Assembly (NCBI GenBank): GCA_016180645.1
Contig: JACPAV010000007.1
Coordinates: forward strand, 104,888-168,887
Length of the DNA: 64,000 nucleotides
Reading direction: 5' to 3'
From: Nitrospirota bacterium
GTDB lineage: Bacteria > JACPQY01
Shown here: piece after piece, positions 24,402 to 39,537 of the stretch
Layout: each line of letters opens with the position of its first letter
Position numbering within the stretch: position 1 is the stretch's first letter
Notes under the pieces: model-generated
What the model saw: the letters and a program-made list of their open reading frames with translations, nothing else
What the model was told of the DNA's origin: nothing
The model's database searches: none
Made by a program: the position numbers and the translations under genes

Positions 24402-24470
<69 letters not shown>

Positions 24471-24474
<4 letters not shown>

Positions 24475-24613
24475 TGGAAGGGCACGTACTCACGCGCCCG
24501 CGAGCCAGGATGGTGAGCGCCGGGCCAATCGCGCAAGTGCGGCCCAGGACGGGCACGTACTTGCGCACACGCGAGCCACGATGGTGAGCCACAGGCCAAT
24601 CGCGTGTGTGCGG
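24471..24613. repeat. two tandem ~70-bp palindromic units at the tRNA 3' end
   Basis: Units 24471-24539 and 24543-24610, each preceded and followed by CGG. Confidence 0.8.
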
Positions 24614-24780
24614 TCCATGCCACAAGACGGTCTCCAACCGACCCGCGTTGCCAACTCCATGGATTTGAGCTACATACCGCAGGGTAAGCTGAAGCATGAA
24701 ACGACAACGGCCAAAGGGGGGAGCGGAATCCCGGTCAATCCAGCATGTCAGTCTCCTGGGTCGGGCGGCGGCAGCCATCC

Positions 24781-26790
24781 ATGAATAACTTTGGCGAGAA
24801 GGTCAATTTCATCTGGTCGGTGGCCGACCTGCTGCGCGGGCCGTACAGGCCGAACCAGTACAAGGACGTGATGCTGCCCCTGACCGTTCTCCGGCGGCTG
24901 GATTGCGTCCTGGAACCTACAAAGGCGAAAGTCCTAGAGAAGCTGAAGAGTCTCCAGGGCGGCAAAGTGAAAAACGTCGAGCCGATTCTGTGCCGCGTCG
25001 CCGGCGTGCCGTTCTACAACACCAGCCGGTTCTCGTTCGAGAAGCTGAAGGGCGATCCGAACAATGTCGCCGCCAATCTCACCCACTACATCAAGGGATT
25101 CTCCAGCCGCGCCCGGGAAATCATCGAGCATTTCGGGTTCGAGGAGCACATCGCCAAGCTCGACAAGGCGGATCGCCTTTTCCTCGTCGTCTCGAAGTTC
25201 TGCGAGATCGATCTCCACCCGGACAAGGTGCCGAACATCGAAATGGGCACGATCTTCGAGGAGCTGATCCGAAAGTTCAACGAGGCGTCGAACGAGGAAG
25301 CAGGCGACCACTTCACGCCCCGCGAGGTCATCCGACTCATGGTGAACCTGCTCTTCCTGCCGGACAACGACGTGTTGACCACCAAGGGCATCGTCAAAAC
25401 CCTTTATGATCCGGCGGCTGGAACGGGTGGAATGCTCTCCGTGGCCGAGGAGTATGTGCGTGAACTGAATCCGGACGCCCGACTGGAGGTCTTCGGTCAG
25501 GACTTCAACCCGCAAGCCTACGCTATTTGCGGGTCGGACATGATGATCAAGGGGCAGAGCCTCGACAACATCCGATTCGGCGACAGCTTTACCCAGGACC
25601 ATCATGCGGGCAGAAACTTCGACTACATGCTCGCGAATCCACCTTTTGGCGTGGAATGGAAACCGCAGGAGAAGGTCATCCGCAAGGAGCACGAGGAACA
25701 GGGATTCGGCGGACGCTTTGGAGCGGGACTGCCGCGCATCAACGATGGATCGTTCCTGTTCCTCCAGCACATGATCGGCAAGATGAAGGAGGCGAAGGAG
25801 GGCGGTACGCGGTTGGGGATCGTCTTCAACGGCTCGCCCCTTTTCACAGGGTCGGCGGGATCGGGCGAGAGCGAGATCAGAAAATGGATCATCGAGAACG
25901 ACTGGCTGGAAGGCATAGTCGCCCTCCCGGACCAGCTTTTCTACAACACCGGCATCTACACATACCTGTGGATTGTCACGAACCGGAAGGAGAAGAGTCG
26001 GCGCGGGAAGATCCAGCTTGTGAATGGGACGACATTTTTCTCGAAGATGCGCAAGAGCCTCGGACAGAAACGGCATGAGATCGGCGAGTCCCATCGCAAC
26101 GAGATCACGCGCCTCTATGGTGAATTCAAGGAGGGGGAATTCGTCCGCATTTTCGACAATCCGGATTTCGGATACCGCCGGATCACCGTGGATCGCCCGC
26201 TCCGGCTTAATTTCGCGGTTACTGAAGAACGAGTGGCCCGTCTGCGGGAAGCCTCGGCCTTCATGAGCCTTGCGGCGAGCCAGAAAAAGGACAAGAAGCT
26301 CAGGCTGGCGAAGGAGGGGGCGGGGCAGGAAGAGCAGAAGCTCATTCTGGCAATTCTCAAGAACAAGATGGACACCTCCACCTTCAAGAATCGCGAGGAA
26401 TTTCTCGGAAGACTCAAGCAGGCGTTCACAGACGGCCACTGGACGGTCGGCGGCCCGCTGATCAAAGCCGTCCTGGAATCCCTTTCCGAGCGGGACGAAA
26501 GCGCCGAAATTTGCCAGGACTTCAAGGGGAATCCCGAACCCGATCCGGAACTGCGCGACTACGAGAATGTTCCCCTCAAGGAAGACGTGACGGAGTACAT
26601 GAAGCGCGAAGTCCTCCCTCACGTTGCTGATTGCTGGGTTGACGAGTCGAAAACCAAGATCGGCTACGAGATCAACTTCAACCGGTATTTCTACAAGTAT
26701 GCACCTCCGCGTCCGCTCGCGGAAATCGAGGCGGACCTGAAGAAAATCGAGGGCGAGATTGCGGCAATGCTGGGGGAGACGTCCGAATGA
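24781..26790 (+). CDS. hsdM: type I restriction-modification methyltransferase subunit
   Basis: FIWSVADLLRG, GDHFTPREVI, YDPAAGTGGML, ANPPFG, IGYEINFNRYFY. Confidence 0.95.
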   Translation: MNNFGEKVNFIWSVADLLRGPYRPNQYKDVMLPLTVLRRLDCVLEPTKAKVLEKLKSLQGGKVKNVEPILCRVAGVPFYNTSRFSFEKLKGDPNNVAANLTHYIKGFSSRAREIIEHFGFEEHIAKLDKADRLFLVVSKFCEIDLHPDKVPNIEMGTIFEELIRKFNEASNEEAGDHFTPREVIRLMVNLLFLPDNDVLTTKGIVKTLYDPAAGTGGMLSVAEEYVRELNPDARLEVFGQDFNPQAYAICGSDMMIKGQSLDNIRFGDSFTQDHHAGRNFDYMLANPPFGVEWKPQEKVIRKEHEEQGFGGRFGAGLPRINDGSFLFLQHMIGKMKEAKEGGTRLGIVFNGSPLFTGSAGSGESEIRKWIIENDWLEGIVALPDQLFYNTGIYTYLWIVTNRKEKSRRGKIQLVNGTTFFSKMRKSLGQKRHEIGESHRNEITRLYGEFKEGEFVRIFDNPDFGYRRITVDRPLRLNFAVTEERVARLREASAFMSLAASQKKDKKLRLAKEGAGQEEQKLILAILKNKMDTSTFKNREEFLGRLKQAFTDGHWTVGGPLIKAVLESLSERDESAEICQDFKGNPEPDPELRDYENVPLKEDVTEYMKREVLPHVADCWVDESKTKIGYEINFNRYFYKYAPPRPLAEIEADLKKIEGEIAAMLGETSE

Positions 26791-27386
26791 AATACGGCCG
26801 CCGGTCCGTCCGCTTGCAGGGCTACGACTACGCCCAATCCGGCGCGTATTTCGTGACGATGTGCGCGCAGGGGAGGGAATGCCTTTTCGGTGACGTGGTA
26901 GACGGCGACATCGTGTTGAATGACGCGGGACGAATCACGGAACGATGTTGGTTGGCAATTCCGGCCCATTTCCCCCATGTTCAATTGGACGTATTCGTCG
27001 TTATGCCCAACCATCTTCATGGGGTCTTGTTGATCTACGACATCCCCGCCGCATCGGCCGTATCCGTAGGGGCGAAAAATATTTCGCCCCTACAATCCGA
27101 CAAATCCGCCGGCCAACGGCCACGTGGGACATCGAAAACCATCGGTTCGGTCATTCGTGGATTCAAAATCGGCGTGACCAAATGGTTCCGGCAAAACACC
27201 TCGATCCACATGGTGTGGCAACGCAATTACTACGAACACGTCGTTCGCAACGACGACGAATTGAACCGCATCCGGGAATACATCGTCAATAACCCGGCGC
27301 AATGGGAAATGGATCTGGAGAATCCAGCTGCGGGAGCGATCCGGCGGGTTGTCCCAACGGAAAGGCCGTGCGAAGACGCACAATGA
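26787..27386 (+). CDS. REP-associated tyrosine transposase (RAYT/IS200-like HUH)
   Basis: RRSVRLQGYDY, YFVTMC, MPNHLHG (HUH), WQRNYYEHVVR, YIVNNP. Confidence 0.9.
   Translation: MKYGRRSVRLQGYDYAQSGAYFVTMCAQGRECLFGDVVDGDIVLNDAGRITERCWLAIPAHFPHVQLDVFVVMPNHLHGVLLIYDIPAASAVSVGAKNISPLQSDKSAGQRPRGTSKTIGSVIRGFKIGVTKWFRQNTSIHMVWQRNYYEHVVRNDDELNRIREYIVNNPAQWEMDLENPAAGAIRRVVPTERPCEDAQ
27066..27093. repeat. intragenic GTAG REP palindrome
   Basis: GTAGGGGCGAAA-aata-TTTCGCCCCTAC, in frame within the RAYT gene. Confidence 0.85.
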
Positions 27387-27422
27387 CACATTGTGCGTAT
27401 GCGAAGTACACCCCGCCCATTC

Positions 27423-27438
27423 ACACCAATATTAGTGT
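27423..27438. promoter_or_regulatory. candidate antitoxin operator palindrome
   Basis: ACACCAATATTAGTGT (14/16 palindromic) just upstream of the toxin start. Confidence 0.45.
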
Positions 27439-27447
27439 TGACACATC

Positions 27448-27801
27448 GTGGAGTTCAGCGTAGAGTTCTACGAGTCGCCCGCGGGCCGATGTCCGGTTCG
27501 GGAGTTCCTTGAGGAATTGAGAACGGACGACCCGGATGACTTTGCAGCGGTAATGGCGGGACTCGTGAAGCTCCGGCAAAGGCGGAATCACCGGCCGCCG
27601 ATTTCGAAGCCGGTGGGCGGGGGATTATTCGAACTGCGGCATGTGGGCAAGTTGAATTCGAGAGTGATGTACTTCTTTGTGAGGGGACGGCGGATTGTGA
27701 CTGTACACGGGATACGCAACAAGGCGCGAGACATCTCCCCTCGTGATCGGGTGGCGGCATTGGAGCGGATGAGAGACTGGCGGGCGAGGAACGAAGCATG
27801 A
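27448..27801 (+). CDS. RelE/Gp49 (HigB-like) toxin
   Basis: VEFYE...CPVREFL, GLFELR, RVMYFF, HG..K; toxin-first order. Confidence 0.85.
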   Translation: MEFSVEFYESPAGRCPVREFLEELRTDDPDDFAAVMAGLVKLRQRRNHRPPISKPVGGGLFELRHVGKLNSRVMYFFVRGRRIVTVHGIRNKARDISPRDRVAALERMRDWRARNEA

Positions 27802-28139
27802 AAAAGACGAATTTCGACATCTATTTGGAAGAACAGATGAGAGACAAGGCTTTTGCGGCGCGGTTCCGTCGGGCGGGTGAGGCGTGGGACGTGGCCCTCC
27901 AGATTGCGGCGCTTCGGAAAGAGGCGGGTCTTTCGCAGAAGGAACTTGCCAAACGACTCCGCACGACCCAGCAACAGGTCAGTCGCTTGGAGTCGACGTC
28001 CTACGAGGGTCATTCGCTCAGCATGCTCCGCCGGGTTGCGGCGGCGCTGGACGCCCGCGTCCGGGTGGTCCTCGAGCCGGCCCGCTCCCGCGGGCACACC
28101 ATCCTTGCAGAGCGGCAGGCCAAATATGGAATCCGGTGA
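27798..28139 (+). CDS. HTH antitoxin (HigA-like)
   Basis: LRKEAGLSQKELAKRLRTTQQQVSRLE; ATGA overlap with toxin. Confidence 0.88.
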   Translation: MKKTNFDIYLEEQMRDKAFAARFRRAGEAWDVALQIAALRKEAGLSQKELAKRLRTTQQQVSRLESTSYEGHSLSMLRRVAAALDARVRVVLEPARSRGHTILAERQAKYGIR

Positions 28140-28187
28140 GACCGAGGGTTGAGGGGGCGGTGTGATGAGAAAGAGAAGGCAAGGCCT

Positions 28188-29693
28188 ATGACGGAACCGA
28201 CGGTCATATGTCCAAAGTGCAAGCACGAGTTCAAACTCACGGAATCGCTGGCCGCGCCGCTGCTCGCGTCCCTCCGGCAAGACTACGAGAAACGACTGGC
28301 ACAGAAAGATGAGGACTTTACCAAACGAGAGGGCGATCTGCGGCAGCGGGAAGAAGCGCTGGAGAAGGCCAAGCATGGGGTGGATGAACAGGTCTCCCAG
28401 AAACTGCGGCAGGAACGCGCCAAGATTGCCGCCGAGGAGGCCAAAAAGGCCAAGCTGGCGCTGGGTTCCGACTTGGAACAGAAGACGAAGGAGGTAGAGG
28501 ACCTTCAGGGAGTTCTCAGGAGCAAGGACGAGAAGCTGGCCGAGGCTCAGAAGGCACAGGCTGACTTGATTCGTCTGAAGCGCGAGGTAGATGAAGCCAG
28601 GCGGGAAGCAGAACTGAAGGTGCAGGAGGGGATTCAGGCGGGCCTTGCTGGCGAGCGCGAAAAGGCGCGGAAGGAGGCCGAGGGACGGTTGAATATCAAG
28701 ATGGCGGAGAAGGACGAAGCCGTCGCTTCTCTGCGGAAAGAAATCGAGGATGCCCAGTCAAAACTTTCCGAGGCGCAAATGGCCCAAGCTGAATTCGTCC
28801 GAAAACAGCGGGAGCTTGATGACGAGAAACGCAAGCTGGACCTGACGGTTGAGGAGCGATTGCGGGACGGCGCGGCGGGAATTCGCGAGCAGGGCCGCAA
28901 GGAAGCTGAAGACCAACTCAAGCTCAAGGTTGCCGAGAAAGAGCAGACCATTACCTCCATGCAGAAACAGATCGAGGACCTCAAGCGTCGGGCCGAACAG
29001 GGATCGCAGCAACTCCAGGGGGAAGTCCAAGAGATCGAACTTGAGCAACTTCTGCGTGCCAAATTCCCGCAGGACGATATCGAGCCTGTAGGCAAGGGCG
29101 AGCGGGGTGGCGACATCATGCAGAGGGTTGTCGGCCCACTCGGCCAGCCGTGCGGTTCGATCCTATGGGAGTCGAAACGGACCAAGAACTGGAGCGATGG
29201 CTGGCTCGCGAAGCTCCGGGAGGACCAGAGATCCGCCAAGGCGGAAATTGCGGTGATTGTCAGCCAAGTTCTTCCGAAAGGTATCGATTCCTTCGATTTG
29301 ATCGATGGCGTTTGGGTTGTCCATCCTCGCGCGGCGCTTCCGGTTGCCATGGCATTGCGCCAGACCTTGATCGAAGTCGGGCTGGCCCGCCAGGCTTCCG
29401 AGGGGCAGCAGACGAAAATGGGAATGGTCTACGAGTACCTGACCGGCCCGCGATTCCGCCAGCGCGTTCAAGCCATCGTCGAGGCGTTTTCCAACATGAA
29501 AGAAGATTTGGACAAGGAGAAAAAGGCCATCACGAAACAGTGGGCCAAACGCGAAGAGCAAATCGACCGCGTCATGCAGGGCACCGTCGGCCTGTACGGC
29601 GACCTCCAAGGCATTGCGGGGAAAACCTTGCAGGAAATTGAAGGGCTTGATCTCCCAGTCCTTAATGCACTGACTCCAGATCCGGGAGAATAA
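28188..29693 (+). CDS. DUF2130 coiled-coil protein
   Basis: CPKC, long coiled coil, GSQQLQGEVQE, FP.D.I.PV.KG..GGD, ILWESKRTKNWS. Confidence 0.88.
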   Translation: MTEPTVICPKCKHEFKLTESLAAPLLASLRQDYEKRLAQKDEDFTKREGDLRQREEALEKAKHGVDEQVSQKLRQERAKIAAEEAKKAKLALGSDLEQKTKEVEDLQGVLRSKDEKLAEAQKAQADLIRLKREVDEARREAELKVQEGIQAGLAGEREKARKEAEGRLNIKMAEKDEAVASLRKEIEDAQSKLSEAQMAQAEFVRKQRELDDEKRKLDLTVEERLRDGAAGIREQGRKEAEDQLKLKVAEKEQTITSMQKQIEDLKRRAEQGSQQLQGEVQEIELEQLLRAKFPQDDIEPVGKGERGGDIMQRVVGPLGQPCGSILWESKRTKNWSDGWLAKLREDQRSAKAEIAVIVSQVLPKGIDSFDLIDGVWVVHPRAALPVAMALRQTLIEVGLARQASEGQQTKMGMVYEYLTGPRFRQRVQAIVEAFSNMKEDLDKEKKAITKQWAKREEQIDRVMQGTVGLYGDLQGIAGKTLQEIEGLDLPVLNALTPDPGE

Positions 29694-29694
29694 T

Positions 29695-29883
29695 ATGATG
29701 GCCTTGCTTATTGACATTCTCGCCTGGGGCACGGCCATCCTCACCGATTGGCAGCGAGATGCAATGCGTCGCCTGTTCCAGAAACAAGATCTCGATGCGC
29801 AAGATTCCGATGACTTGTTTGCCATGCTGAAGTCTGCACGTGGGACACCCGATCCTCAGAACCGCCACTCCATGTTTCTTTAG
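29695..29883 (+). pseudogene. probable N-terminal fragment of a large ABC/AAA-type ATPase gene
   Basis: ILAW...WQRDAMRRLF...DDLFAMLK resembles N-termini I recall from large island ATPases; stops after 62 aa with no P-loop. Confidence 0.55.
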
Positions 29884-29919
29884 AGAGGTGGAAATCTGGT
29901 CACGATTCAAGACCGGAAA

Positions 29920-30936
29920 ATGTTGTTTCTCCGGAATTGTGATATACATTACACTGGTGGTGTCGTAGTGAACCACATTGCGGCTCGATCTTGCCAGCCA
30001 ACTCCGCGAATGCACGGAAATGGTGGGCACATCTTAGATCAGGGGTTGTTGGAAGCGGGGTCACTCTCTCCCCACATTGCGCCGTCGCGCCCGTTTCTTC
30101 GTTGGGCCGGATCGAAGCGGTGGCTCTTGAGGCAGATTGTTCATATCCTGCCACGCCAGTTCGGTAGATACCACGAGCCATTTCTCGGGTCCGGCGCGCT
30201 CTTCTTCTTTCTCGGACCCCAGCGAGCGTTGCTGACTGATAAGTGTAGCGAATTGATTGATGTCTACACGATGATCAGGCATGAGGTGTCCACCATCATT
30301 CGATACTTGAGACCGATGAAGCCGAACCGCGACCTGTTCTACGCCATTCGCAACCAGCCGAGCCGGGGCAGGCTGAAGCGAGCAGCCGAGTTCCTGTATC
30401 TCAACAAAACCTGCTGGAATGGGCTGTACCGCGTCAACTCGGAGGGACGGTTCAACGTTCCGTACGGGATGCCCAGAACGGACTTCATCGCGGACTTCGA
30501 AAATCTCCGTGCATGCTCCCAGGTCCTTGAGAGGCCCGGAGTGAAGCTCCGGTCCTGTGATTTCGAGGCCGCCTTGGTGAACGTGAAGGCCGGCGATCTG
30601 GTTTACCTTGATCCGCCATACGTTACGCGGCACAACAACAACGGCTTCGTCGATTACAACGAAACTCTCTTCTCCTGGGAGGATCAGAGACGCCTAGCCA
30701 CGCGCGCGCGGCAGATCGCAAATGCTGGGGCCTATGTAATCGTGACCAACGCCAACCATCGAGAGGTTGTGGAGCTTTACCAAGGCTTCAAGAGCCGTAC
30801 TCTGACACGGTCTTCGACTCTGGCCTCTGACTTCAAGTGCCGGGGTCGAGTGAAAGAAGCCCTCCTGTACTCTCCGAATTGCGGGGAGGGACGTAGATCA
30901 CCGTGCCGAAGGGTTCTTGGAGGCAGCGATGACTAG
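29920..30936 (+). CDS. Dam-type (D12 class) N6-adenine DNA methyltransferase; true start probably 30010-30050
   Basis: PFLRWAGSKRWL, EPFLGSGA, YLNKTCWNGLYRVNSEGRFNVPYG, YLDPPY. Confidence 0.93.
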   Translation: MLFLRNCDIHYTGGVVVNHIAARSCQPTPRMHGNGGHILDQGLLEAGSLSPHIAPSRPFLRWAGSKRWLLRQIVHILPRQFGRYHEPFLGSGALFFFLGPQRALLTDKCSELIDVYTMIRHEVSTIIRYLRPMKPNRDLFYAIRNQPSRGRLKRAAEFLYLNKTCWNGLYRVNSEGRFNVPYGMPRTDFIADFENLRACSQVLERPGVKLRSCDFEAALVNVKAGDLVYLDPPYVTRHNNNGFVDYNETLFSWEDQRRLATRARQIANAGAYVIVTNANHREVVELYQGFKSRTLTRSSTLASDFKCRGRVKEALLYSPNCGEGRRSPCRRVLGGSDD

Positions 30937-31900
30937 ACGGACCAAGGCCCTTGTTCCCGAGCCGGTCGGTGTCAAGACCCTCCGGACGAACCAGCTCCAG
31001 CCGAATCCGCACAATCCTAGGATGCTCTTCGACAAAGCGCCGATGAAGACGCTCCAAGATTCAATTGGTCAGGTCGGAATCCTGGTGCCGCTCACTGTCT
31101 ACCAGCGCAGGTCGGACCGGCAATTCATCATCTTGGACGGCCAGCGGCGGTGGATCTGCGCACAGAAGGTCGGGCTGCCGACGGTGCCTGTAAATCAGGT
31201 CGCCGAGCCAAACCTGGTTCAAAACATAGTGACGATGTTTCAGATCCACAAGCTGCGCAAAGATTGGGAGCTCATGCCGACGGCGCTCAAACTTGAAGTC
31301 CTCATAACGAAGCTGCAGGAGAAATCAGATCGCAAGCTGGCGGAACTGACGGGTCTGGATATCGCCGTCGTAACCCGTTGTAAGAAGCTGCTTTCGTACT
31401 CAAAGGAGTTCCAGGATCTGATGCTCGACCCAGACCCGGAAAAGCGCGTCAAGGCAGATTTCTTCATCGAGCTGTTTCCAGTCCTCCACGACAGGGTGGT
31501 CAAGAAGATGTCACAACGCTCCCAAGGCCCCCTCGTTCGCAAGATGCTCGCGAAGCATCAAAGCACCGAGGGGGGTATCAGGGCAGTCACAGATTTCCGC
31601 AAGGTCAAGCAGCATTTGGCAAACGCACGGAAGGCAGGCAAGGTCTCGGTAATCGCTCGCAGGTTTAAAGAGTTCGCCGAGAAGGTGGAGCTGAGTCCTG
31701 ACCACCTGGTGATTCCGGCGGCTAACGTGTCAGCCCAGGCAAGATCACTTCACGGCAAGGTCGAAAAACTCCAGGAAGCACTTGCAGGCCTTGACGTCGA
31801 GGCATACGTCGGCGAGGAAGCACTATGGGGCGCAATCGAGTCGCTACTTCGCACGGTTCGCAAATGCCTAGCGGTTGCAGGACGAAGGACCAATGAATGA
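30929..31900 (+). CDS. ParB/Srx N-terminal domain protein with HTH
   Basis: GGAGG RBS; PNPHNPR, LQDSIGQVGILVPLTV, ILDGQRRW, HTH SDRKLAELTGLDIAVVTR. Confidence 0.88.
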   Translation: MTRRTKALVPEPVGVKTLRTNQLQPNPHNPRMLFDKAPMKTLQDSIGQVGILVPLTVYQRRSDRQFIILDGQRRWICAQKVGLPTVPVNQVAEPNLVQNIVTMFQIHKLRKDWELMPTALKLEVLITKLQEKSDRKLAELTGLDIAVVTRCKKLLSYSKEFQDLMLDPDPEKRVKADFFIELFPVLHDRVVKKMSQRSQGPLVRKMLAKHQSTEGGIRAVTDFRKVKQHLANARKAGKVSVIARRFKEFAEKVELSPDHLVIPAANVSAQARSLHGKVEKLQEALAGLDVEAYVGEEALWGAIESLLRTVRKCLAVAGRRTNE

Positions 31901-32724
31901 GAACACCCAAAGATCGCGGGAAACCAGTCGACGCTGGCCGTATGAGATCTTGGCTGGACCGGTTCGACGGCTATCGAATTGCGGTGACAGATCAGCGAAT
32001 CAGCGCTTGGCTCCAGCGCTTTAGACGAGATGATACTGATCTCGGAGCAAGGCTCCTCGACGCGGTCATGTTCCTCAGGTCCGAGGACATGGAGGAGGCA
32101 CTGCGCAAGCTGGTGGACCATCTACCGGGTTGGGATAAAAGTCACGCGCGCCGGGAGGGGAAGTGGCGTTTCCTAGCCTTCTCAATCAGCGCTGGCGAGA
32201 GTGGAGATACGATGCTCCACAAGTCACGAACCGCCCTCGGACTGACTGGCGGTCGATACGATCAACTATTCATCCACAAGGCCGATCTGCTCAAAGAGGA
32301 GCTTGGCTGCGACGACAGCGTAGTTTTCTTTGATGACTTTGCCGGGACGGGTCGGCAAGCTTGTCGTGCGTGGCATGAAACCCTTGCGGAGTTACTTCCC
32401 GGAAGCCCAAGGGCGTATTTGGTCCTTGTTGCAGCTGGGGAGCGGGCCGTTGATCGCATTGCTCAGGAGACAGGATTGAAGGTCGTGACAAAACATGTAC
32501 TCGGCGTTGGTGATGACATTTTCTCAGGGGAATGCGAGCATTTCAGCCGAACGGAGAAAGAACGCCTGGTTGAGTATGGAAAGATAGCGGCTCGAAAGAT
32601 GCCACGAGGCTACGGGGACTGTGGCTTCGTGATCGTGTTGGCTCACAAGACTCCGAACAATTCGATCCCAATCCTTCATGCCAATCACGGTCACTGGAGA
32701 GGATTATTCCCGAGGCACGGATAA
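31897..32724 (+). CDS. phosphoribosyltransferase-like protein (PRTase-CE-like)
   Basis: VVFFDDFAGTGRQA PRPP-loop; C-terminal GYG...HKTPNNSIPILH...WRGLFPR; ATGA overlap with ParB. Confidence 0.8.
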   Translation: MRTPKDRGKPVDAGRMRSWLDRFDGYRIAVTDQRISAWLQRFRRDDTDLGARLLDAVMFLRSEDMEEALRKLVDHLPGWDKSHARREGKWRFLAFSISAGESGDTMLHKSRTALGLTGGRYDQLFIHKADLLKEELGCDDSVVFFDDFAGTGRQACRAWHETLAELLPGSPRAYLVLVAAGERAVDRIAQETGLKVVTKHVLGVGDDIFSGECEHFSRTEKERLVEYGKIAARKMPRGYGDCGFVIVLAHKTPNNSIPILHANHGHWRGLFPRHG

Positions 32725-32810
32725 CCGACAACTCGCCACCGGCAGCGCTTCAAGTGCTCAATCCTCATCCGCTGGGAGTCAGACATATTGCTTGCCGATC
32801 TGATGATGCC

Positions 32811-34100
32811 ATGAACTGGCGAGCGTATCCTGAAACCAAGCCGTCCGGCTTGGAGTGGCTGGGGGAGATTCCATCAGGCTGGCGGACCATGCGGCTCAAG
32901 TACTGCGCTTCCCTCGTCAACGAGAAAACAGATGGATTCGCCTCGGAATTGCCATACACCGGGCTTGAACACATCGAGTCCTGGACCGGAAAACGGGTTC
33001 AGACGGGTGAAAAACCGGAAGCTGAAGGGCAGGCAAGCAAGTTCTGCGGGGGAGACCTCCTCTTTGGGAAATTACGACCGTATCTGGCCAAGGTTTTCCG
33101 TTCCGACGAAAGCGGCATCTGCACCGGAGAGCTGTTGGTCTTGCGGACGAAGAACGTCAGCCGTGACTACCTTTTCTACTATGTACTGGCACGGGATTTC
33201 ATTTCAATCGTTGACTCCTCCACCTATGGGGCGAAGATGCCCAGGGCAAGCTGGGAATTCATCGGAAATCTTCCAGCACTTGTTCCTTCTGACAATGAGC
33301 AACGCGCGATCGCGGCGTTTTTGGATCGGGAGACGGGGCGGATTGATGGGCTGATTGAGAAGAAAGAGCGGCAGATCGAACTCCTACAGGAAAAACGCGC
33401 GGCTGTAATCACCCATGCCGTGACGAAGGGCCTCGATCCGAAGGCCCCCATGAAAGATTCCGGCATCGAGTGGCTGGGAGAGATTCCGGCGCATTGGACT
33501 ATTCGTCAACTTAAGTACGTGGCCACGTTTCAGAGAGGACATGATCTTCCAGATTCAGTGCGAGCGGAGGGGGCAGTCCCCGTCGTTACGTCTGGGGGCA
33601 TTTCCGGGAGTCATGATGAATACCGCGCAAAGGGACCCGGAATCGTAACGGGTCGGTACGGGACGATTGGCACGATTTACTATGTCGAGGATGACTTTTG
33701 GCCGCACAATACGACGCTATATTGTAGCAATTCGCGAGGCAACAATATGAGGTTTCTCTGGTACCTGCTTCAGAATATCTCCGGCTTTTTTCTTCTCAAC
33801 GCAGGAAAATCAGCGGTTCCGGGCGTAGACCGCAACGACCTGCATCCCATACCCGTAGCAATTCCTGTGGATGTTGACGAACAGAAGGAGATTGCAGGAT
33901 TTCTCGACAGGGAGACGGTCAAGGGTGACGCCCTTTGTAAACGGATCGATGAATCCATTGCTGTTCTCCGCGAATACCGGACGGCGCTCATCTCGGCCGC
34001 CGTGACCGGCAAGATCGATGTGCGGCCAGCGGACGGGGCACTCAGGAATCTGAACCAAGCCGATGAAGATGGACAAGACGTAACCGTGGTGGGAGAATAA
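32811..34100 (+). CDS. hsdS: type I restriction-modification specificity subunit
   Basis: Two EWLGEIP..W repeats, two EQ..IA.FLDRET spacers, EYRTALISAAVTGKIDVR. Confidence 0.95.
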   Translation: MNWRAYPETKPSGLEWLGEIPSGWRTMRLKYCASLVNEKTDGFASELPYTGLEHIESWTGKRVQTGEKPEAEGQASKFCGGDLLFGKLRPYLAKVFRSDESGICTGELLVLRTKNVSRDYLFYYVLARDFISIVDSSTYGAKMPRASWEFIGNLPALVPSDNEQRAIAAFLDRETGRIDGLIEKKERQIELLQEKRAAVITHAVTKGLDPKAPMKDSGIEWLGEIPAHWTIRQLKYVATFQRGHDLPDSVRAEGAVPVVTSGGISGSHDEYRAKGPGIVTGRYGTIGTIYYVEDDFWPHNTTLYCSNSRGNNMRFLWYLLQNISGFFLLNAGKSAVPGVDRNDLHPIPVAIPVDVDEQKEIAGFLDRETVKGDALCKRIDESIAVLREYRTALISAAVTGKIDVRPADGALRNLNQADEDGQDVTVVGE

Positions 34101-34105
34101 AGATC

Positions 34106-34513
34106 ATGGCGATCAGAGTGATAGACGTAGAGAGAGCCAAGGCTCAAAAGCTTCTTGCCAAGGCTCATCTCCTGCGCCAATGGCAAGAACGTAGGCCACG
34201 GGCGGGCATTCGGATGAGTTTGGATAAGACCTTCGTCCTCCCTAGAGGACATCAGAGAATTCAGTTCCGGCCTGACGTGGTGGTGCAGGACCAGAAGGGA
34301 GCCATACACGCCTTTTATGAGATTAAAACGGCGATACCCCATTCCACCGATCTCCGCCTGGCGGCCAGGCAGCTACAGTCTTATTCGCAAATGGCGCCGC
34401 ACGCCATATGTGGAGTAGTGTTGCCCTCAGAGGCTCTTCAGGATTCGTCCATTCAGCAAGTGATCGCCGAAATCAGGGAGCGTTCCCCAGGATTCGAGAT
34501 TTGGTCCATCTAG
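34106..34513 (+). CDS. hypothetical protein with PD-(D/E)XK nuclease-like motif
   Basis: RPDVVV...FYEIKT...RQLQSY. Confidence 0.6.
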   Translation: MAIRVIDVERAKAQKLLAKAHLLRQWQERRPRAGIRMSLDKTFVLPRGHQRIQFRPDVVVQDQKGAIHAFYEIKTAIPHSTDLRLAARQLQSYSQMAPHAICGVVLPSEALQDSSIQQVIAEIRERSPGFEIWSI

Positions 34514-34517
34514 CTGA

Positions 34518-35105
34518 TTGAATCCACTCCTTCAGGAATTCACGTCCAACCTGACGAAGCAAGTCAGTCTGTACCAAAATATCCTGAATATGACGGGAGA
34601 CAGGGCCAGTCCGGCCGTGAGGGCGTTCATTGCCGCGTCGCATTTGGTATTCATCTTTGGAATCTACGACGCATTCCTGCACCAATTGGTCTGGCGAAGG
34701 CGAGCGCGAAAGCCCATTGTGGCCGGAAAACTCAGCCAATCGCCGGAATTGTTTGCCAAGACTACGCTTTTCAATCCAAGGCGGATCCCCAAGGTGCTGA
34801 AGCCCTACTATCCTCCACCACCGCTCAAATGGAGCCACACCCTTGCCGACCTGATTTCACTTCGCGGTGTAGTGGCCCACGCCGGAGGAAACCCTGCACT
34901 CTTGTCGGATGATGGCAGGAAGCTGTACAAGGAGACATTCGGGGGAACCATCCATGCAGGAGACGTTCTATTGACTCGCATACCTCATTCCGTGCAGGGG
35001 ACAAGGAGAACTGTTGTTCCGCCACTCGGCACGACGCGTATTGACCTTGCCGAACGATGTCTCTTGGTTTTGGCGGAGTTTTACGACAATAAGCTCCTTC
35101 GCTGA
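34518..35105 (+). CDS. hypothetical protein, putative HEPN-like
   Basis: Helical, with Rx4H motif RGVVAH followed by AGG (34863-34880). Confidence 0.5.
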   Translation: MNPLLQEFTSNLTKQVSLYQNILNMTGDRASPAVRAFIAASHLVFIFGIYDAFLHQLVWRRRARKPIVAGKLSQSPELFAKTTLFNPRRIPKVLKPYYPPPPLKWSHTLADLISLRGVVAHAGGNPALLSDDGRKLYKETFGGTIHAGDVLLTRIPHSVQGTRRTVVPPLGTTRIDLAERCLLVLAEFYDNKLLR

Positions 35106-35143
35106 TTGCTCTTGGACCAGATCGACGTGCGCGGGGCAGTCGG

Positions 35144-35734
35144 GTGAAGCGGAGGAGAAGGCCCGTCGTCGTTGTCCTCGCCGGGCCAAACGGCGCGGGA
35201 AAATCGACCGTCGGGCCGAGGTTGTTGAAAGAAACGCTCCGGGTGGTGGAGTTCATTAACACCGATACCATCGCCTTGGGACTTTCCGCTTTCCGGCCCG
35301 AAGGGGCGGCCATCGAGGCAGGGAGGGTGATGTTACGCAGATTCGAGGAGCTTGCCCATAAACGGGAAAACTTTGCCGTCGAATCGACGCTCGCGGGGCG
35401 CACGCTCGCCCCTCGTCTGGCCGGGTTGAAGAAAAGGGGCTACAAGATTCACATCATTTTCATCCGGCTCGCGAGCGATGCACTCGCCATTGAAAGAGTC
35501 GCTGACCGTGTGAGGTCCGGGGGGCACAATATCCCCATAGACGTCATCCGACGACGGTACCGCCGAGGTCTCCGGAACTTCTTCCATTTCTACATGCCCC
35601 TTGCCGATGACTGGCGGCTATACGATAATTCTGGTCCAGTGGGTCCAAGGCTTGTGGCATTCGGAAGGAAGAAACTCAAGATCCACGTGATGGAGCCGGC
35701 TGTTTGGAGAATAGTGGAGGAAGGCGCGTCTTGA
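35144..35734 (+). CDS. zeta-toxin-like P-loop ATPase
   Basis: LAGPNGAGKST, INTD.IA, FAVESTLAG, RVRSGGHNIP, YDNS. Confidence 0.88.
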   Translation: MKRRRRPVVVVLAGPNGAGKSTVGPRLLKETLRVVEFINTDTIALGLSAFRPEGAAIEAGRVMLRRFEELAHKRENFAVESTLAGRTLAPRLAGLKKRGYKIHIIFIRLASDALAIERVADRVRSGGHNIPIDVIRRRYRRGLRNFFHFYMPLADDWRLYDNSGPVGPRLVAFGRKKLKIHVMEPAVWRIVEEGAS

Positions 35735-36003
35735 GCAGGAACAACGTTGATATTGACCGAATCTTTTCTGAGGGGAAGCTGATTGATAGGGCACTCCGGG
35801 ATGGCGTGCGGGCCGCCATGATCCGGCACAAGCAATTGGGGCTGCCTGTCGTGGACTTTCAGGACGGGAAGATTGTGCTGGTCCCCCCGCAGAAGATCGA
35901 CACCCTGCTTAGGGCGTCCAACGGCAGGAAGGTCAAACGCGCAACCCGCCACCGTCGCCGCAAGGCTCAGCCCGCGCCTCGCCGGTCGGCCAAACGGCGG
36001 TAA
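35731..36003 (+). CDS. small partner protein of the zeta-like ATPase
   Basis: TTG overlapping upstream stop; A...HK..GLPVV...DGKIV motif. Confidence 0.7.
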   Translation: MSRNNVDIDRIFSEGKLIDRALRDGVRAAMIRHKQLGLPVVDFQDGKIVLVPPQKIDTLLRASNGRKVKRATRHRRRKAQPAPRRSAKRR

Positions 36004-36021
36004 TCCGCGAGGGGAGGCCCC

Positions 36022-39000
36022 GTGCCGGGGCAACACACCGAGAAAGCGTTCGAAACCGCCATCGAAGACTTCCTCGTCTCCGGGGGCGGGTACAGTAAGG
36101 GCGACAAGTCGGCGTACGATCCTGCGCGGAGCTTGTTCCCCCAAGAGGTCTTGGGATTCATCCGCGAGACTCAGCCCAAGGAATGGGAGTACCTCAAGAA
36201 TCTCCAAAAAGAGAAAGCCGAAGAGATTCTTTTTGATGACCTCTGCCGCGCGCTCGACTCAAATCAGGAAGGCTGCCTCTCCGTGCTCCGGCACGGGTTC
36301 AAGTGCTTCGGAAAGCTGTTCCGCGTGGCGTATTTCTCTCCGGCCAGCGGTCTGAATCCGGAAATCCAGAAGCTCTACGATGCGAACCGGCTGACGATCA
36401 CCCGTCAGGTCGTCTATTCAAGCCGGCACGGGAATTCAATTGATGTCGCGTTGGCGCTGAATGGGATTCCCGTCGCCACCGCCGAACTTAAGAATCCCAT
36501 GACCGGCCAGAACTGGCGTCACGCCATCCACCAGTACAAGAGCGACCGAGATCCTGCCGATCTGATCCTTCAATTCAAGAAGCGGGCGCTGGTCCACTTT
36601 GCGGCGGACCCGGACGAGGTCTACATGACCACCCGCCTCGCGGGCGGCAATACCCACTTCCTGCCCCTCAACCGGGGCCATAACAACGGCGCGGGGAACC
36701 CGGAAAATCCCACGGGGTGGAAAACGGCCTACCTCTGGGAGGAAATCCTGGAGCGGCACAGCTTTCTGGATATTCTCGCGCGATTCGTCCATCTCCAGGT
36801 CGAAGAGAAGAAGCTGGGCGGGAAGACCGTCAAACGAGAGAGCATGATTTTCCCACGCTACCACCAGCTTGATTCGGTCCGGCGGCTGGTTGCGGACGTG
36901 CGCCGGGAGGGGGCGGGGACGAACTATCTTGTCCAGCATTCCGCGGGGAGCGGGAAGAGCAACTCCATTGCGTGGCTCGCCCATCGGCTGTCGAGCCTCT
37001 ACAACGAGAAGGACGAGAAGGTGTTTGACTCGGTGGTGGTGGTGACGGATCGGGTTGTTCTGGACCAGCAGCTTCAGAACACGATCTATCAATTCGAGCA
37101 CAAGCAGGGCGTCGTCCAGAAGATCGACGTCGATTCCGAACAGTTGGCGAAGGCGCTCTCCGCCGGAGTCCCCATCGTGATTACGACGCTTCAGAAGTTT
37201 CCTTTCGTGACCGAGAAGATCGGCGATCTCCCCAAACGGAAGTACGCCGTCATCATCGACGAAGCGCACAGCTCGCAGGGCGGGGAGACGGCGGCTGATC
37301 TGAAGGGTGTTCTCGGCGGCGCGGCCATCAGGGAGGAAGCGCAGAAGAAGAAGGAAGAAGAGGGGCTGACGGACTACGAGGAGGAGGTCTTGCGGACGAT
37401 GGCCAAACGTGGTCGCCAGCCGAACATCAGCTTCTTCGCCTTCACGGCCACGCCCAAATACAAGACGCTCGAAGTCTTCGGTCGTCCAGGAGCGTACGGA
37501 AAGCCTCAGCCATTCCATCTCTACAGCATGCGCCAGGCCATCGAGGAACGCTTCATCCTGGACGTTCTCAAGCACTACACGACTTACCAGACCTACTACC
37601 GCCTTGTGAAATCCATCGAGGACGATCCCAAGGTGGACAAGCGCAAGGCAGCCCGCGCGCTTGCACGGTTTATGAGCCTGCACCCGCACAACATCGCCCA
37701 GAAGACGGAGGTTATGGTCGAGCATTTCCGCCATTTCACGATGCACAAGATCGGAGGCCGCGCGAAGGCCATGGTGGTCACGTCCAGCCGCCTCCATGCC
37801 GTGCGGTACAAATTGGAATTCGACAAGTACATCAAGGAAAAGGGCTACAGGGGCATCAAGACGCTCGTCGCTTTCTCCGGAAGGGTGATCGATCCGGATG
37901 TACGGGGGATGGAGTTCACCGAGGAGGGCATGAACATCGATGCCAAGGGGAATCGAATCCGTGAGAAGGAACTCCCGGAGCGGTTCGGGACGGATGAATA
38001 TCAAGTGCTTCTCGTGGCGGAGAAGTTCCAGACCGGGTTCGACCAGCCGTTGCTGCACACCATGTACGTGGACAAGCGACTTGCGGGAATCCAGGCCGTT
38101 CAGACCCTATCGAGGCTGAATCGGACATGCCCCGGCAAGGAGGACACCTTCGTGCTGGACTTTGTGAACGACCCGAAGGAGATCCAGGATGCGTTTCAAC
38201 CGTATTACGAGCAGACGCTTGTGGGGGAGCGCGCCGAGGCGAAGCAACTCTACGAACTTCAGGCCAAGCTGAACGCGCATCAAATCTATCACGCGGAGGA
38301 AGTCGAGGAGTTTTGCAAGGCGTTCTATCGTCCCGCGCGGGAGCAAACCCCCGCCGATCATGCCCGCATGAACGCGTGTCTCGATCCCGCCGTGGGACGA
38401 TTCAAGGAACTCGAGGAGGACAAGCGGGAGGAGTTCCGGAAAACCTTGATCGCGTATCGGAACCTGTACGCGTTTCTGTCGCAGGTGATCCCGTTCCAGG
38501 ATTCGGACTTGGAGAAGCTCTACACGTACATCCGATTCCTTCTGGCGAAGCTTCCGAGGGAGGATCGGGGTCCCGTCTACGACTTCGAGGATGAGGTGGC
38601 GCTCAAGTACTACCGGGTCCAGAAGATCGGCGAGGGTTCGATCAAGCTGGATGCGGGGAAGCAAGCGCCCATCTCCGGGCCGACGGAAGTCGGAACGGGA
38701 GTGGTCCGGGGAGTCCAGATCGAGCTGTCGAAATTGATCGACATCTTGAACGAGCGATTCGGGACGGAGTTTAAGCCGGGCGATCAACTATTCCTGGACT
38801 CGATCAAGGAGGACGCAGTGGGCAACTCCAATTTGAGGCAGGCGGCATTGGCTAACACGATGGAGAACTTCGGATACGTCTTCCTGAAGGCGCTCGAAGG
38901 ATTGTTCATCGACCGGATGGAACAAAATGAGGAGATGACGGCGCGGTTCATGAACGACGGGGAGTTCAAGGAGGTGATCGGGAAACACCTCTTGAAGGAA

Positions 39001-39537
39001 GTCTACCAGCACATCCGGTCACAGGGATCGAAAGGGCAAGCGGAGGTCCTGCCATTCCGGCGCGTGACGCCCTCGGAGAAGGACAAGTACCGGACTTGCC
39101 TGCCGTTGGTGCCGCTTCAGGCCGCCGCGGGCGCATTCAGTGGATCGCAGGCGGTTTCGCCGCAGGATGGCGAGTGGGTGGAAATTGATTCGGGGCACAA
39201 GTTGAGGCTGGGCATGTTCGTGGCGCAGGTGAAAGGTCGTTCCATGGAGCCGCGCATCCCGGATGGCGCATACTGCCTGTTTCGCGCTCCTGTGGAGGGC
39301 TCCCGGCAGGGTCGGACTGTGCTGGCGCAGCATCGCGACATCCACGACCCCGATTCCGGCGGGCAGTACACCGTCAAACGGTATACCAGTCGCAAGGTGG
39401 CGGATGGCGCGGGTGGCTGGCGGCACGTCGAGATCGCCCTCCAGCCTGAGAACAAAGATTACGCCCCCATCATGCTGAAAGCCGACGACGAAGGTTCCAT
39501 CTCCGTCATCGCCGAACTTTTGGAAGTGCTCAAGTAG
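36022..39537 (+). CDS. hsdR: type I restriction endonuclease subunit R with C-terminal S24/LexA-like peptidase domain
   Basis: D...NGIPVATAELKN nuclease motif, HSAGSGKS, IIDEAHSS, FTATPK, QTLSRLNR; tail AAAG...GRSMEP...TVKRY. Confidence 0.95.
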   Translation: MPGQHTEKAFETAIEDFLVSGGGYSKGDKSAYDPARSLFPQEVLGFIRETQPKEWEYLKNLQKEKAEEILFDDLCRALDSNQEGCLSVLRHGFKCFGKLFRVAYFSPASGLNPEIQKLYDANRLTITRQVVYSSRHGNSIDVALALNGIPVATAELKNPMTGQNWRHAIHQYKSDRDPADLILQFKKRALVHFAADPDEVYMTTRLAGGNTHFLPLNRGHNNGAGNPENPTGWKTAYLWEEILERHSFLDILARFVHLQVEEKKLGGKTVKRESMIFPRYHQLDSVRRLVADVRREGAGTNYLVQHSAGSGKSNSIAWLAHRLSSLYNEKDEKVFDSVVVVTDRVVLDQQLQNTIYQFEHKQGVVQKIDVDSEQLAKALSAGVPIVITTLQKFPFVTEKIGDLPKRKYAVIIDEAHSSQGGETAADLKGVLGGAAIREEAQKKKEEEGLTDYEEEVLRTMAKRGRQPNISFFAFTATPKYKTLEVFGRPGAYGKPQPFHLYSMRQAIEERFILDVLKHYTTYQTYYRLVKSIEDDPKVDKRKAARALARFMSLHPHNIAQKTEVMVEHFRHFTMHKIGGRAKAMVVTSSRLHAVRYKLEFDKYIKEKGYRGIKTLVAFSGRVIDPDVRGMEFTEEGMNIDAKGNRIREKELPERFGTDEYQVLLVAEKFQTGFDQPLLHTMYVDKRLAGIQAVQTLSRLNRTCPGKEDTFVLDFVNDPKEIQDAFQPYYEQTLVGERAEAKQLYELQAKLNAHQIYHAEEVEEFCKAFYRPAREQTPADHARMNACLDPAVGRFKELEEDKREEFRKTLIAYRNLYAFLSQVIPFQDSDLEKLYTYIRFLLAKLPREDRGPVYDFEDEVALKYYRVQKIGEGSIKLDAGKQAPISGPTEVGTGVVRGVQIELSKLIDILNERFGTEFKPGDQLFLDSIKEDAVGNSNLRQAALANTMENFGYVFLKALEGLFIDRMEQNEEMTARFMNDGEFKEVIGKHLLKEVYQHIRSQGSKGQAEVLPFRRVTPSEKDKYRTCLPLVPLQAAAGAFSGSQAVSPQDGEWVEIDSGHKLRLGMFVAQVKGRSMEPRIPDGAYCLFRAPVEGSRQGRTVLAQHRDIHDPDSGGQYTVKRYTSRKVADGAGGWRHVEIALQPENKDYAPIMLKADDEGSISVIAELLEVLK

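Follow-up and report, generated by a model that had tools for sequence, protein, structure and literature searches.

What might a DNA methylase, a ParB-type protein and a phosphoribosyltransferase (PRTase)-like protein accomplish together when they are encoded by three overlapping genes? The question is raised by a 64,000-nucleotide (nt) stretch of DNA from a Nitrospirota bacterium (assembly GCA_016180645.1, contig JACPAV010000007.1, positions 104,888 to 168,887 of the forward strand), here called the window, in which such a triad sits within a type I restriction-modification (R-M) and toxin-antitoxin island beside a tRNA-Lys gene. A preliminary description made from the letters of the window had put the triad forward as a candidate undescribed defence or DNA-modification system. 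The best-supported reading of the comparisons reported here is that the triad links methylation-gated defence with an effector family already known, by way of a ParB partner that has no precedent. It would be an R-M-like conflict cassette without a nuclease, in which self DNA carries a methyl mark, ParB detects DNA that lacks it, and the PRTase disturbs phosphoribosyl pyrophosphate (PRPP) or nucleotide pools, a proposal to which we give about an even chance of being right.

A mobile cassette of three genes

The ORF list of the window contains three plus-strand open reading frames (ORFs) in tandem, at 29920-30936, 30917-31900 and 31897-32724. The methylase stop at 30936 runs into the start of the ParB gene (TTG 30917 or ATG 30929), while the ParB stop and the PRTase start share the letters ATGA at 31897-31900, a 4-nt overlap. 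The motifs DPPY, DGQRR, DDFAGTG and PNNS...WRGLFPR are all present in the translations. Coordinates and translations thus agree with the three overlapping, co-oriented genes with intact motifs of the preliminary description, and family and structure searches of each product identified a D12-class methylase, a ParB N-terminal domain with a helix-turn-helix (HTH), and a PRTase-CE protein with a PRTase fold.

The methylase matches Pfam PF02086 (8e-45) and the NCBIfam model TIGR00571 dam (9e-65; 219 bits, cut-off 114.85); in PADLOC it matches generic MTase_II/orphan models only, among them the type II methylase model PDLC03266 (8e-83). Its closest solved relatives are DpnII methylase 1, DpnM (2dpm, 1.9e-51), followed by E. 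coli Dam (~1e-27). The specificity of the nearest solved relatives of this methylase class (MT1, below) we take to be GATC, and by analogy a GATC target is only suggested for the class itself. The start at 29920 given in the preliminary description is to be revised: the gene most likely starts at ATG 30010, because the protein similarity of relatives begins at residue 3 of the product of that start and DNA similarity to the closest genome locus, L001, begins at 30070.

The preliminary description had named recurrence of the triad in unrelated genomes as a check, and there it does recur. Relatives of the PRTase number 310 in a collection of 5.8 billion proteins, the best 120 of them being about 275 amino acids (aa) long, carrying PF24390 and bearing no functional name. 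A pattern scan of one genome per species yielded 80 PRTase loci, of which 55 (L001-L055) are close relatives with 27-64% identity, spanning at least 11 phyla (NC10, Chloroflexota, Armatimonadota, Pseudomonadota, Sumerlaeota, Acidobacteriota, Ignavibacteriota, Planctomycetota, Bacteroidota, Eisenbacteria and Binatota). A ParB gene lies immediately upstream of the PRTase gene in 51 of these 55, the exceptions being two loci without upstream sequence (L006, L031) and two without ParB (L046, L053). A DNA methylase adjoins the pair in 53 (Dam-like in 39, a divergent D12 enzyme of 400-500 aa in 13, a C5-cytosine enzyme in one, L009), and the two loci without one, L031 and L046, are short contigs. 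All-against-all clustering of the 703 ORFs of the close loci recovered as recurrent families the PRTase (53 loci), ParB (50) and methylases (38 and 13); no fourth recurrent gene emerged in these 55 loci, the next cluster being present in 4. Cultured carriers include Jiella pelagia HL-NP1 (L040) and Mesorhizobium sp. ES1-1 (L036). An independent, ParB-seeded scan of metagenome contigs returned 397 relatives, and among the best 80, whose neighbours were examined, the PRTase gene is next after ParB in 75, the remaining five contigs ending within ~100 nt, and a Dam-type methylase lies upstream of ParB in 74. An exhaustive profile search found 181 ParB representatives with E <= 1e-30 (clusters at 50% identity), and two divergent triads occur on IMG/VR viral contigs (ParB 36-38% and PRTase 21-26% identical, PF24390 1e-29 to 4e-31).

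Alignment of the window with L001 (5176-7847) by blastn gave 72% DNA identity over 2681 columns, and L002 gave 69%. Since the similarity to L001 spans the extent given in Table 1 and stops at the PRTase stop, it delimits a cassette of ~2.7 kb. By these comparisons the triad is a self-contained, horizontally mobile cassette. Apparent frameshifts were noted in the ParB gene of L001, the methylase gene of L048, all three genes of L049 and the PRTase gene of L050. Their interpretation as gene decay was not adopted: L048 is a nanopore assembly by its record name, others are suspected to be likewise, and indel errors are common there.

Exchange of the methylase around a coupled pair

Within the cassette, the ParB and PRTase genes behave as one unit. 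Among the 43 loci in which both are complete, 31 show a 4-nt overlap of the ParB stop with the PRTase start and 6 a 1-nt overlap, and in the rest the two lie within 12 nt of each other or overlap further; judged from these junctions, the pair is constant and translationally coupled. Prediction of a ParB-PRTase complex, with both alignments used, gave an ipSAE of 0.57 (runs 0.51, 0.64 and 0.57), against 0.00 for the best control; at least 84% of contacts are common to the runs, and the partners have a pLDDT of at least 86. In the calibration of this method, 116 of 157 solved pairs attained the mark, as did 2 of 215 mismatches, and a pass of 0.60 or less counts as weak. The two proteins are therefore weakly predicted to form a complex.

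The methylase, by contrast with this constant pair, varies in class, side and strand. PADLOC matches the methylases labelled MT1 to PDLC03266/03294, those labelled MT2 to PDLC03257/03287 and the C5 enzyme to PDLC03326. In most loci the methylase gene is upstream on the same strand; in L025 and most MT2 loci it is downstream on the same strand, and in L006, L036, L038, L042 and L048 it is downstream on the opposite strand. By their family matches the classes comprise two D12 types, a C5 type and possibly a CcrM-like type. When methylase class was mapped onto a tree of concatenated ParB and PRTase sequences (44 rows, IQ-TREE quick mode), 11 changes were counted, where the minimum is 4 and the shuffled mean 16.7; for MT2, well-supported branches force at least five changes. 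The window (MT1a) and L003 (MT2) are sisters with support 95, L034 (MT2) groups with L036 and L038 (MT1a, opposite strand) with support 100, and L005 (MT2), L007 (MT1b) and L009 (C5) form an unresolved group of three with support 86. The tree also mixes phyla, for example placing Binatota and Phycisphaerae rows within Terriglobia.

Repeated swapping of the methylase across chemical classes, beside a constant and coupled pair, is what one would expect if the pair were harmful to unmarked DNA or to unmarked cells and any suitable methylation were protective. The preliminary description had offered two ideas, a methylation-gated module and, alternatively, a base-hypermodification pathway. The comparative evidence favours the first, the methylase appearing as an exchangeable self-marking partner whose class has changed repeatedly, and disfavours the second, since the methylase switches between N6-adenine and C5-cytosine types while ParB and the PRTase stay unchanged.

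Two loci show other arrangements. In L124 (1576-5754) the ParB-PRTase pair has upstream of it, on the opposite strand, a methylase of CcrM-like type (PF01555; 6pbd, 7e-61), and downstream a gene that matches a PADLOC type II restriction-enzyme model (3.7e-14); this pair may be embedded in a classical R-M system and borrow its methylase. L130 (3971-8918) carries two tandem cassettes with a P63C-domain gene between them, the second with a divergent methylase-ParB unit 2.5 kb away that runs off the contig.

The PRTase-CE protein

The third gene encodes a stand-alone protein of 275 aa that matches Pfam PRTase-CE (PF24390, 1.5e-37) and, in PADLOC, the retron effector model PRTase_III-A (2.8e-25); no PADLOC models other than those of retron III-A effectors were matched. 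The AlphaFold2 (AF2) model (pLDDT 91.5, pTM 0.87) has a type I phosphoribosyltransferase fold. Its top fold match is the uracil phosphoribosyltransferase (UPRTase) 1vst (Z 11.0, rmsd 3.2 over 135 residues), ahead of orotate (OPRT) and xanthine-guanine (XGPRT) enzymes, and Foldseek agrees. A profile of the family found no match among the sequences of solved structures up to E = 1, so that the relation to them is placed by fold searches only; no NCBIfam model was matched, and the Protein Atlas returned nothing beyond PRTase-CE clusters. Across the family the DD...TG and PNNS-P-ILH...W...FPR motifs are invariant. These matches assign the protein to the effector family PRTase-CE, and not to a salvage family.

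The same domain is found in other settings. In the distant loci (L056-L075) PRTase-CE is the C-terminal domain of STAND NTPases (AAA_16/nSTAND1) of 830-1180 aa, as seen in all eight long proteins scanned, while in L064 the STAND and PRTase-CE parts are encoded by separate, adjacent genes. Fifteen residues are invariant between the triad and the STAND proteins (S102, G103, D146, D147, G152, G238, G243, N254, N255, P258, I259, L260, W267, F271 and R273). The STAND-PRTase-CE proteins of L056-L075 come from Alphaproteobacteria and Binatia, and some lie near T5orf172, SIR2_2 or AAA_21/DUF4435 genes. PRTase-CE families also mark type III-A retrons (PMC13712802), and in Retron-Eco11 the PRTase-like effector brings about abortive infection associated with PRPP depletion (PMC12746101); other defence PRTases described are ShosT, PsyrT and OpnC of Ophion (bioRxiv 10.1101/2025.09.30.679545; PMC11961720). 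By its domain arrangements, then, PRTase-CE is a modular effector domain reused in retrons and STAND NTPases, and this use elsewhere fits a model in which ParB is the sensor and the PRTase acts on nucleotides.

The ParB protein

The ParB protein matches Pfam ParB_N (PF02195, 4.7e-13) and TIGR00180 (7.6e-16). A profile of 28 ParB relatives matches Caulobacter ParB (6t1f) over residues 16-167 (2e-16), and also Noc and Spo0J, the match covering both the nucleotide-binding domain and the HTH. The AF2 model (pLDDT 87.7) is matched by Foldseek to CTP- or CDP-bound ParB, Noc and KorB. The architecture comprises the nucleotide-binding N-terminal domain, the HTH and a family-specific helical C-terminal half; residues 27-185 are highly conserved (66% mean pairwise identity), and the C-terminal half less so (44%). 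No PADLOC model was matched by the ParB proteins of the window, L018 or L040.

In canonical ParB, the Gln of NPxQPR, the Glu of GERR and the Glu-Asn of ENxxR drive CTP hydrolysis, and the Protein Data Bank (PDB) titles of the Myxococcus Q52A and E93A mutants agree with these roles. When the 28 sequences were aligned to Caulobacter ParB, the Gln was found replaced by an invariant N33, the GERR Glu by a nearly invariant Q76, and the Glu-Asn by H111-K112, of which H111 is invariant. R77, R78 and R114 are retained, and the DGQRR loop is conserved. From these substitutions, the triad ParB likely binds nucleotide and hydrolyses it slowly or never, as a switch rather than a cycling clamp.

Proposed mechanism and alternative explanations

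From the families and folds, the coupling, the recurrence as a closed unit, the repeated methylase exchange and the modular use of PRTase-CE, we infer a ParB that reads the methylation state and governs the PRTase, a PRTase that acts on PRPP, and defence as the outcome. The methylase would mark the host's own DNA. ParB, its nucleotide-binding arginines and HTH kept and its CTPase residues replaced, would load on unmarked DNA, whether this enters with a phage or plasmid or is the host's own once the cassette has been lost. Loaded ParB would then activate the translationally coupled PRTase-CE effector, which would consume PRPP or otherwise perturb nucleotide pools, leading to a growth stop through abortive infection or post-segregational killing. 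Stated as nuclease-less R-M-type immunity, with a CTPase-altered ParB clamp that reads absent methylation and triggers a PRTase draining PRPP, or one phosphoribosylating unmodified DNA, the proposal is tentative, and we think it somewhat likelier to fail than to stand.

Several observations weigh against this proposal. The HTH region of ParB hardly varies between loci that have methylases of different classes, which is compatible with a methylation reader only if the differing methylases share one target site or have overlapping ones; MT1 methylases resemble presumed GATC enzymes, and the PF01555 neighbour in L124 resembles CcrM. A ParB domain co-evolving with methylase class was considered and rejected: the trees of the ParB N-terminal part, the ParB C-terminal part and the PRTase, from which L054 was excluded as a long branch, need 11, 10 and 10 changes, respectively. 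Counts of 7-, 8- and 10-mers on both strands in 280 nt around the cassette starts of 50 loci, and in controls, revealed no shared operator or parS-like word beyond the GC-rich background seen at control level. The nearest relatives of ParB are genuine partition and occlusion proteins, and ParB may have a non-immune, DNA-organising role. The ParB-PRTase pair of L130 has no recognisable methylase directly beside it, the upstream gene encoding a protein of 251 aa without a Pfam or PADLOC match. Finally, the flanks of the 55 genome loci are mostly housekeeping genes (carB, rpoD, dnaG, purH, ribonucleotide reductase); neighbours from defence systems or mobile elements are found in a minority of loci and lend weak guilt by association. 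Outside the window, the association with defence islands is weak.

An alternative that keeps the logic of R-M is that restriction is carried out by the ParB/Srx-fold protein, which would nick or degrade unmethylated DNA under NTP regulation, with the PRTase as an accessory regulator or second-line effector. Methylase exchange would suit any toxic partner of R-M type, the DGQRR loop and the three arginines are conserved, and ParB/Srx domains with nicking or DNase activity are described in Osa, in GmrSD and in a ParB-methylase fusion (PMC5512222; PMC12839542). Three features nevertheless make this alternative unlikely: the triad ParB is closest to the CTP-clamp proteins ParB, Noc and KorB, with an intact HTH, and not to DNase-type ParB families; no metal-binding nuclease motif was identified in it; and the PRTase is as conserved as ParB and keeps all the invariant residues of effector-type PRTase-CE, which is unexpected of an accessory protein.

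The PRTase could instead be directed at DNA, with ParB bringing the enzyme to unmethylated sites for phosphoribose transfer or base exchange, resulting in restriction by adducts or in hypermodification resembling that of Dpd. The precedent is DpdB, a ParB-like NTPase that assists a base-exchanging enzyme on DNA (PMC12839542). Translational coupling to ParB, the weakly predicted binding and the invariant DD...TG motif of PRPP type would all accommodate such an activity. The solved folds matched by the PRTase are, however, ordinary nucleotide-salvage enzymes, which act on free bases. In addition, the STAND NTPases and retrons that use PRTase-CE do so without a ParB partner, and for the characterised retron relative the link is to PRPP depletion (PMC12746101). 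Nor would a biosynthetic modification pathway tolerate the swap from an N6-methyladenine to a C5 methylase. We consider a DNA-directed PRTase quite improbable.

Much the same assessment applies to a module for establishment or counter-defence of mobile elements, in which the methylase would shield the DNA of the element and the host would be the target of ParB and the PRTase soon after entry. Such a role has been proposed for the N6-adenine methylase, ParB and PRTase domains of polyvalent proteins of phages and conjugative elements, although the ParB domains concerned are DdrB-like and, in the relevant part of that account, described without an HTH, in contrast to the triad ParB (PMC5512222). 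Some cassettes do lie by conjugation genes (TraG_N in L003; VirB11/TrbC in L034), and one of the divergent triads, on the IMG/VR contig L169 (1458-8300), is located between a holin-endolysin pair and an integrase, a position typical of temperate-phage cargo. Set against these cases are the housekeeping flanks of most of the 55 loci and the rarity of the PRTase in element databases, which amounts to three distant matches (22-23% identity) in a set of 72,556 plasmids and not one in 50,697 phage records. A methylase exchanged beside an unchanging pair, moreover, is the mark of a toxic partner that needs protection.

A non-conflict role, either a module of epigenetic or chromosome-organising function (a Dam-type orphan methylase, a Noc/KorB-like DNA-binding regulator and a salvage enzyme) or an operon association without functional coupling, would account for the closeness of ParB to partition and occlusion proteins and to the repressor KorB and for the mostly housekeeping flanks, but is very improbable given the patchy spread over at least 11 phyla with a tree in conflict with taxonomy, the single copy in the window genome with no match in 40 other genomes searched, the insertion sequence (IS) elements that interrupt some copies (L043, L051), the absence of ParA, and a PRTase that belongs to PRTase-CE with no NCBIfam match and no sequence match to solved PRTases.

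Genomic context

The features of the window are collected in Table 1. The order along the island is hsdM, a REP-tyrosine-transposase-like gene, a Gp49/HTH toxin-antitoxin pair, a DUF2130 gene, a 62-aa stub, the triad and hsdS, and then two ORFs without a family, a zeta-toxin-like kinase gene and hsdR. The preliminary description had placed the triad between hsdM and hsdS; both do flank it, but the five ORFs of the transposase-like gene, the Gp49/HTH pair, DUF2130 and the stub separate hsdM from the triad. It had also noted a gene cut short at ~29883, just upstream. That stub (29695-29883) matches positions 1-56 of the 858 of the PADLOC profile PDC-S06 (E 3.2e-5), and P0121, the single longer relative of the stub (216 aa, 69% identity), does so over positions 1-166 (3.7e-38); by these matches it is the truncated N-terminus of a PDC-S06-type defence candidate. 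Because the island genes and the stub surround the triad, it seems to have entered a defence island that was already there. The claim that neither a cognate restriction endonuclease nor ParA is adjacent stands: in Pfam and PADLOC scans of the neighbourhood proteins, no ParA was found around the triad in the window, and no nuclease near it except HsdR. Scans for promoters and terminators between 29500 and 33000 gave counts at the level of shuffled sequence. Four sequencing runs contain this DNA, all of them DNA runs from a single study and three perhaps its source; no RNA run was listed. The window genome contains a single copy of the cassette, and a DNA search of 40 other genomes, one of them of the same family, found no cassette match and no empty site, just short hsdS-like matches.

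Table 1. Features of the triad and its surroundings in the window
Feature	Position	Strand	Evidence
DNA adenine-N6 methylase, D12 class, DpnM/Dam-like; proposed self-marking component	30010..30936 (ORF open from ATG 29920)	+	PF02086, TIGR00571
ParB/Noc-type protein; proposed DNA sensor and effector regulator	30917..31900 (alternative start ATG 30929)	+	PF02195, TIGR00180
PRTase-CE protein, type I phosphoribosyltransferase fold; proposed effector	31897..32724	+	PF24390, AF2 model
Mobile cassette extent	30070..32722	.	DNA similarity to closest genome locus L001
62-aa stub, PDC-S06-type defence candidate; upstream insertion edge, outside the system	29695..29883	+	PADLOC PDC-S06
tRNA-Lys beside the island	24402-24474		
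hsdM	24745-26790		
hsdS; starts 30 nt past the PRTase stop	32754-34100		
hsdR, 1171 aa	36022-39537	+	

The type I R-M operon itself (24402-39537, counted from the tRNA-Lys gene) is split, with ~6 kb inserted between hsdM and hsdS and a further ~2 kb separating hsdS from hsdR. Its inserts are the REP-tyrosine-transposase-like gene (NF047646, 2e-14, below cut-off), the Gp49/HTH pair, DUF2130, the PDC-S06 stub and the zeta-toxin-like kinase gene. Two plus-strand ORFs in the gap between hsdS and the kinase gene (34106-34513, 135 aa; 34518-35105, 195 aa) have no Pfam, NCBIfam or PADLOC match. HsdR carries at its C-terminus, residues 1034-1162, a LexA/S24-peptidase-like domain (PF00717, 4.5e-8), a fusion of which, to our knowledge, there is no earlier case.

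Among the other loci, the defence neighbours include an MZB-helicase with a PLD protein (L002), HsdR (L015) and PDDEXK_5 (L018), and the L020 cassette adjoins an Eco57I-type methylase and an XhoI-family endonuclease; transposases are found near L024 and L028. An IS3-type transposase pair splits ParB from the PRTase in L043 (5730-6931), and an IS66 transposase lies within the PRTase gene of L051 (5663-6946), the methylase being kept in place in both. Certain insertion neighbourhoods are common to different genera: L036 and L038 lie upstream of carB, and L022, L048 and L055 beside rpoD. In L048 the cassette has a partial copy of rpoD (201 aa) on its far side as well, a hint of site-specific insertion with duplication of the end of the target. 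In Sphingomonas, L034 (9126-11642) and L041 (9096-11423, minus strand) encode a protein of 775-838 aa with a DndB-like domain of the ParB superfamily; its gene is the MT2 methylase's immediate downstream neighbour and lies on the other strand.

Relation to known systems

The absence of the triad from the named systems, claimed in the preliminary description, is borne out. No single named or candidate system in PADLOC-DB v2.0.0 covers all three components, and the triad would not be called; a full-text literature search, outside which lie subscription journals, supplements and the current models of DefenseFinder, found no description of it. The DdrB-like ParB and PRTase domains treated in PMC5512222 are those of phage and plasmid polyvalent proteins and, in the part of that report considered here, do not form this cassette.

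The closest parallels are each partial. Like type II R-M systems such as DpnII, the triad is a small, patchily distributed, mobile cassette in which a type II-class methylase, variable in class, side and strand, accompanies a conserved partner; unlike them, it has no restriction endonuclease domain, its constant partner consisting of ParB-type and PRTase-like proteins, for neither of which a nuclease or restriction-endonuclease model was matched in Pfam or PADLOC. With type III-A retrons (for example Retron-Eco11, composed of a reverse transcriptase, a non-coding RNA and a PRTase-like effector) the triad has the effector family group in common, and by analogy PRPP depletion and abortive infection would be the outcome (PMC12746101), but it has a ParB partner and a methylase instead. 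No reverse transcriptase domain was found in the 15 window proteins scanned and no recurrent extra gene in the 55 loci, and Rfam at the gathering threshold gave only the tRNA-Lys between 24000 and 40000, although many retron RNAs may be lacking from Rfam. The STAND NTPase-PRTase-CE proteins (NLR/AVAST-like) have the same domain and invariant residues and likewise tie the effector to an NTP-binding sensor; there, however, the sensor is a fused STAND ATPase, whereas the triad includes no STAND protein and has a separate ParB with an HTH and a proposed methylation self-mark.

Other systems use ParB or PRTase components in different company. In the predicted effector-ParAB systems, a ParB with an altered active site, analogous to the substitutions in the triad ParB, is proposed to clamp invader DNA together with an effector, but ParA is present, with effectors fused at its N-terminus and variable domains on ParB, while the triad has no ParA; the accessible portion of that account describes neither a methylase nor a PRTase (bioRxiv 10.64898/2026.10.19.760177). 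ShosTA, PsyrTA and Ophion contain toxic or defensive components of PRTase fold that act on nucleotide metabolism, but their partners, so far as these reports describe them, are an antitoxin, or a radical SAM enzyme and a PHP protein, without ParB or methylase (PMC11961720; bioRxiv 10.1101/2025.09.30.679545). Dpd 7-deazaguanine modification pairs the ParB-like NTPase DpdB with an enzyme acting on glycosidic bonds and marks DNA as self or non-self (PMC12839542). The triad differs from it in lacking DpdC and DpdA of the tRNA-guanine transglycosylase (TGT) family (no TGT-family domain was found in the cassette or its recurrent neighbours), in its PRTase fold, and in its conventional methylase as marker. 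ParABS resembles the triad in the N-terminal nucleotide-binding domain and HTH of ParB, but the triad has no ParA in the window neighbourhood or among its recurrent genes, and the canonical CTPase residues are replaced. A partition system was rejected as an explanation in view of the missing ParA, the patchy distribution and the effector family of the PRTase.

Implications

The cassette is compact (~2.7 kb, three genes), widespread in soil and groundwater phyla and rare in plasmid and phage databases, a rarity that may be why it has been overlooked so far. Should the proposed R-M-like conflict cassette prove not to be one, what stays is a well-defined and strongly conserved triad that current defence annotators do not call. 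The cassette also constitutes a natural series, one effector pair with four methylase classes, in which changes of specificity can be studied. If the proposal is correct, methylation-based discrimination between self and non-self would be wired through a ParB clamp to a metabolic effector of abortive-infection type, joining restriction and nucleotide-pool depletion, which are usually treated apart. The biology of ParB and its CTP switch would then gain an immune role, with the first ParB clamp to serve as a sensor of self and non-self DNA coupled to epigenetic marking.

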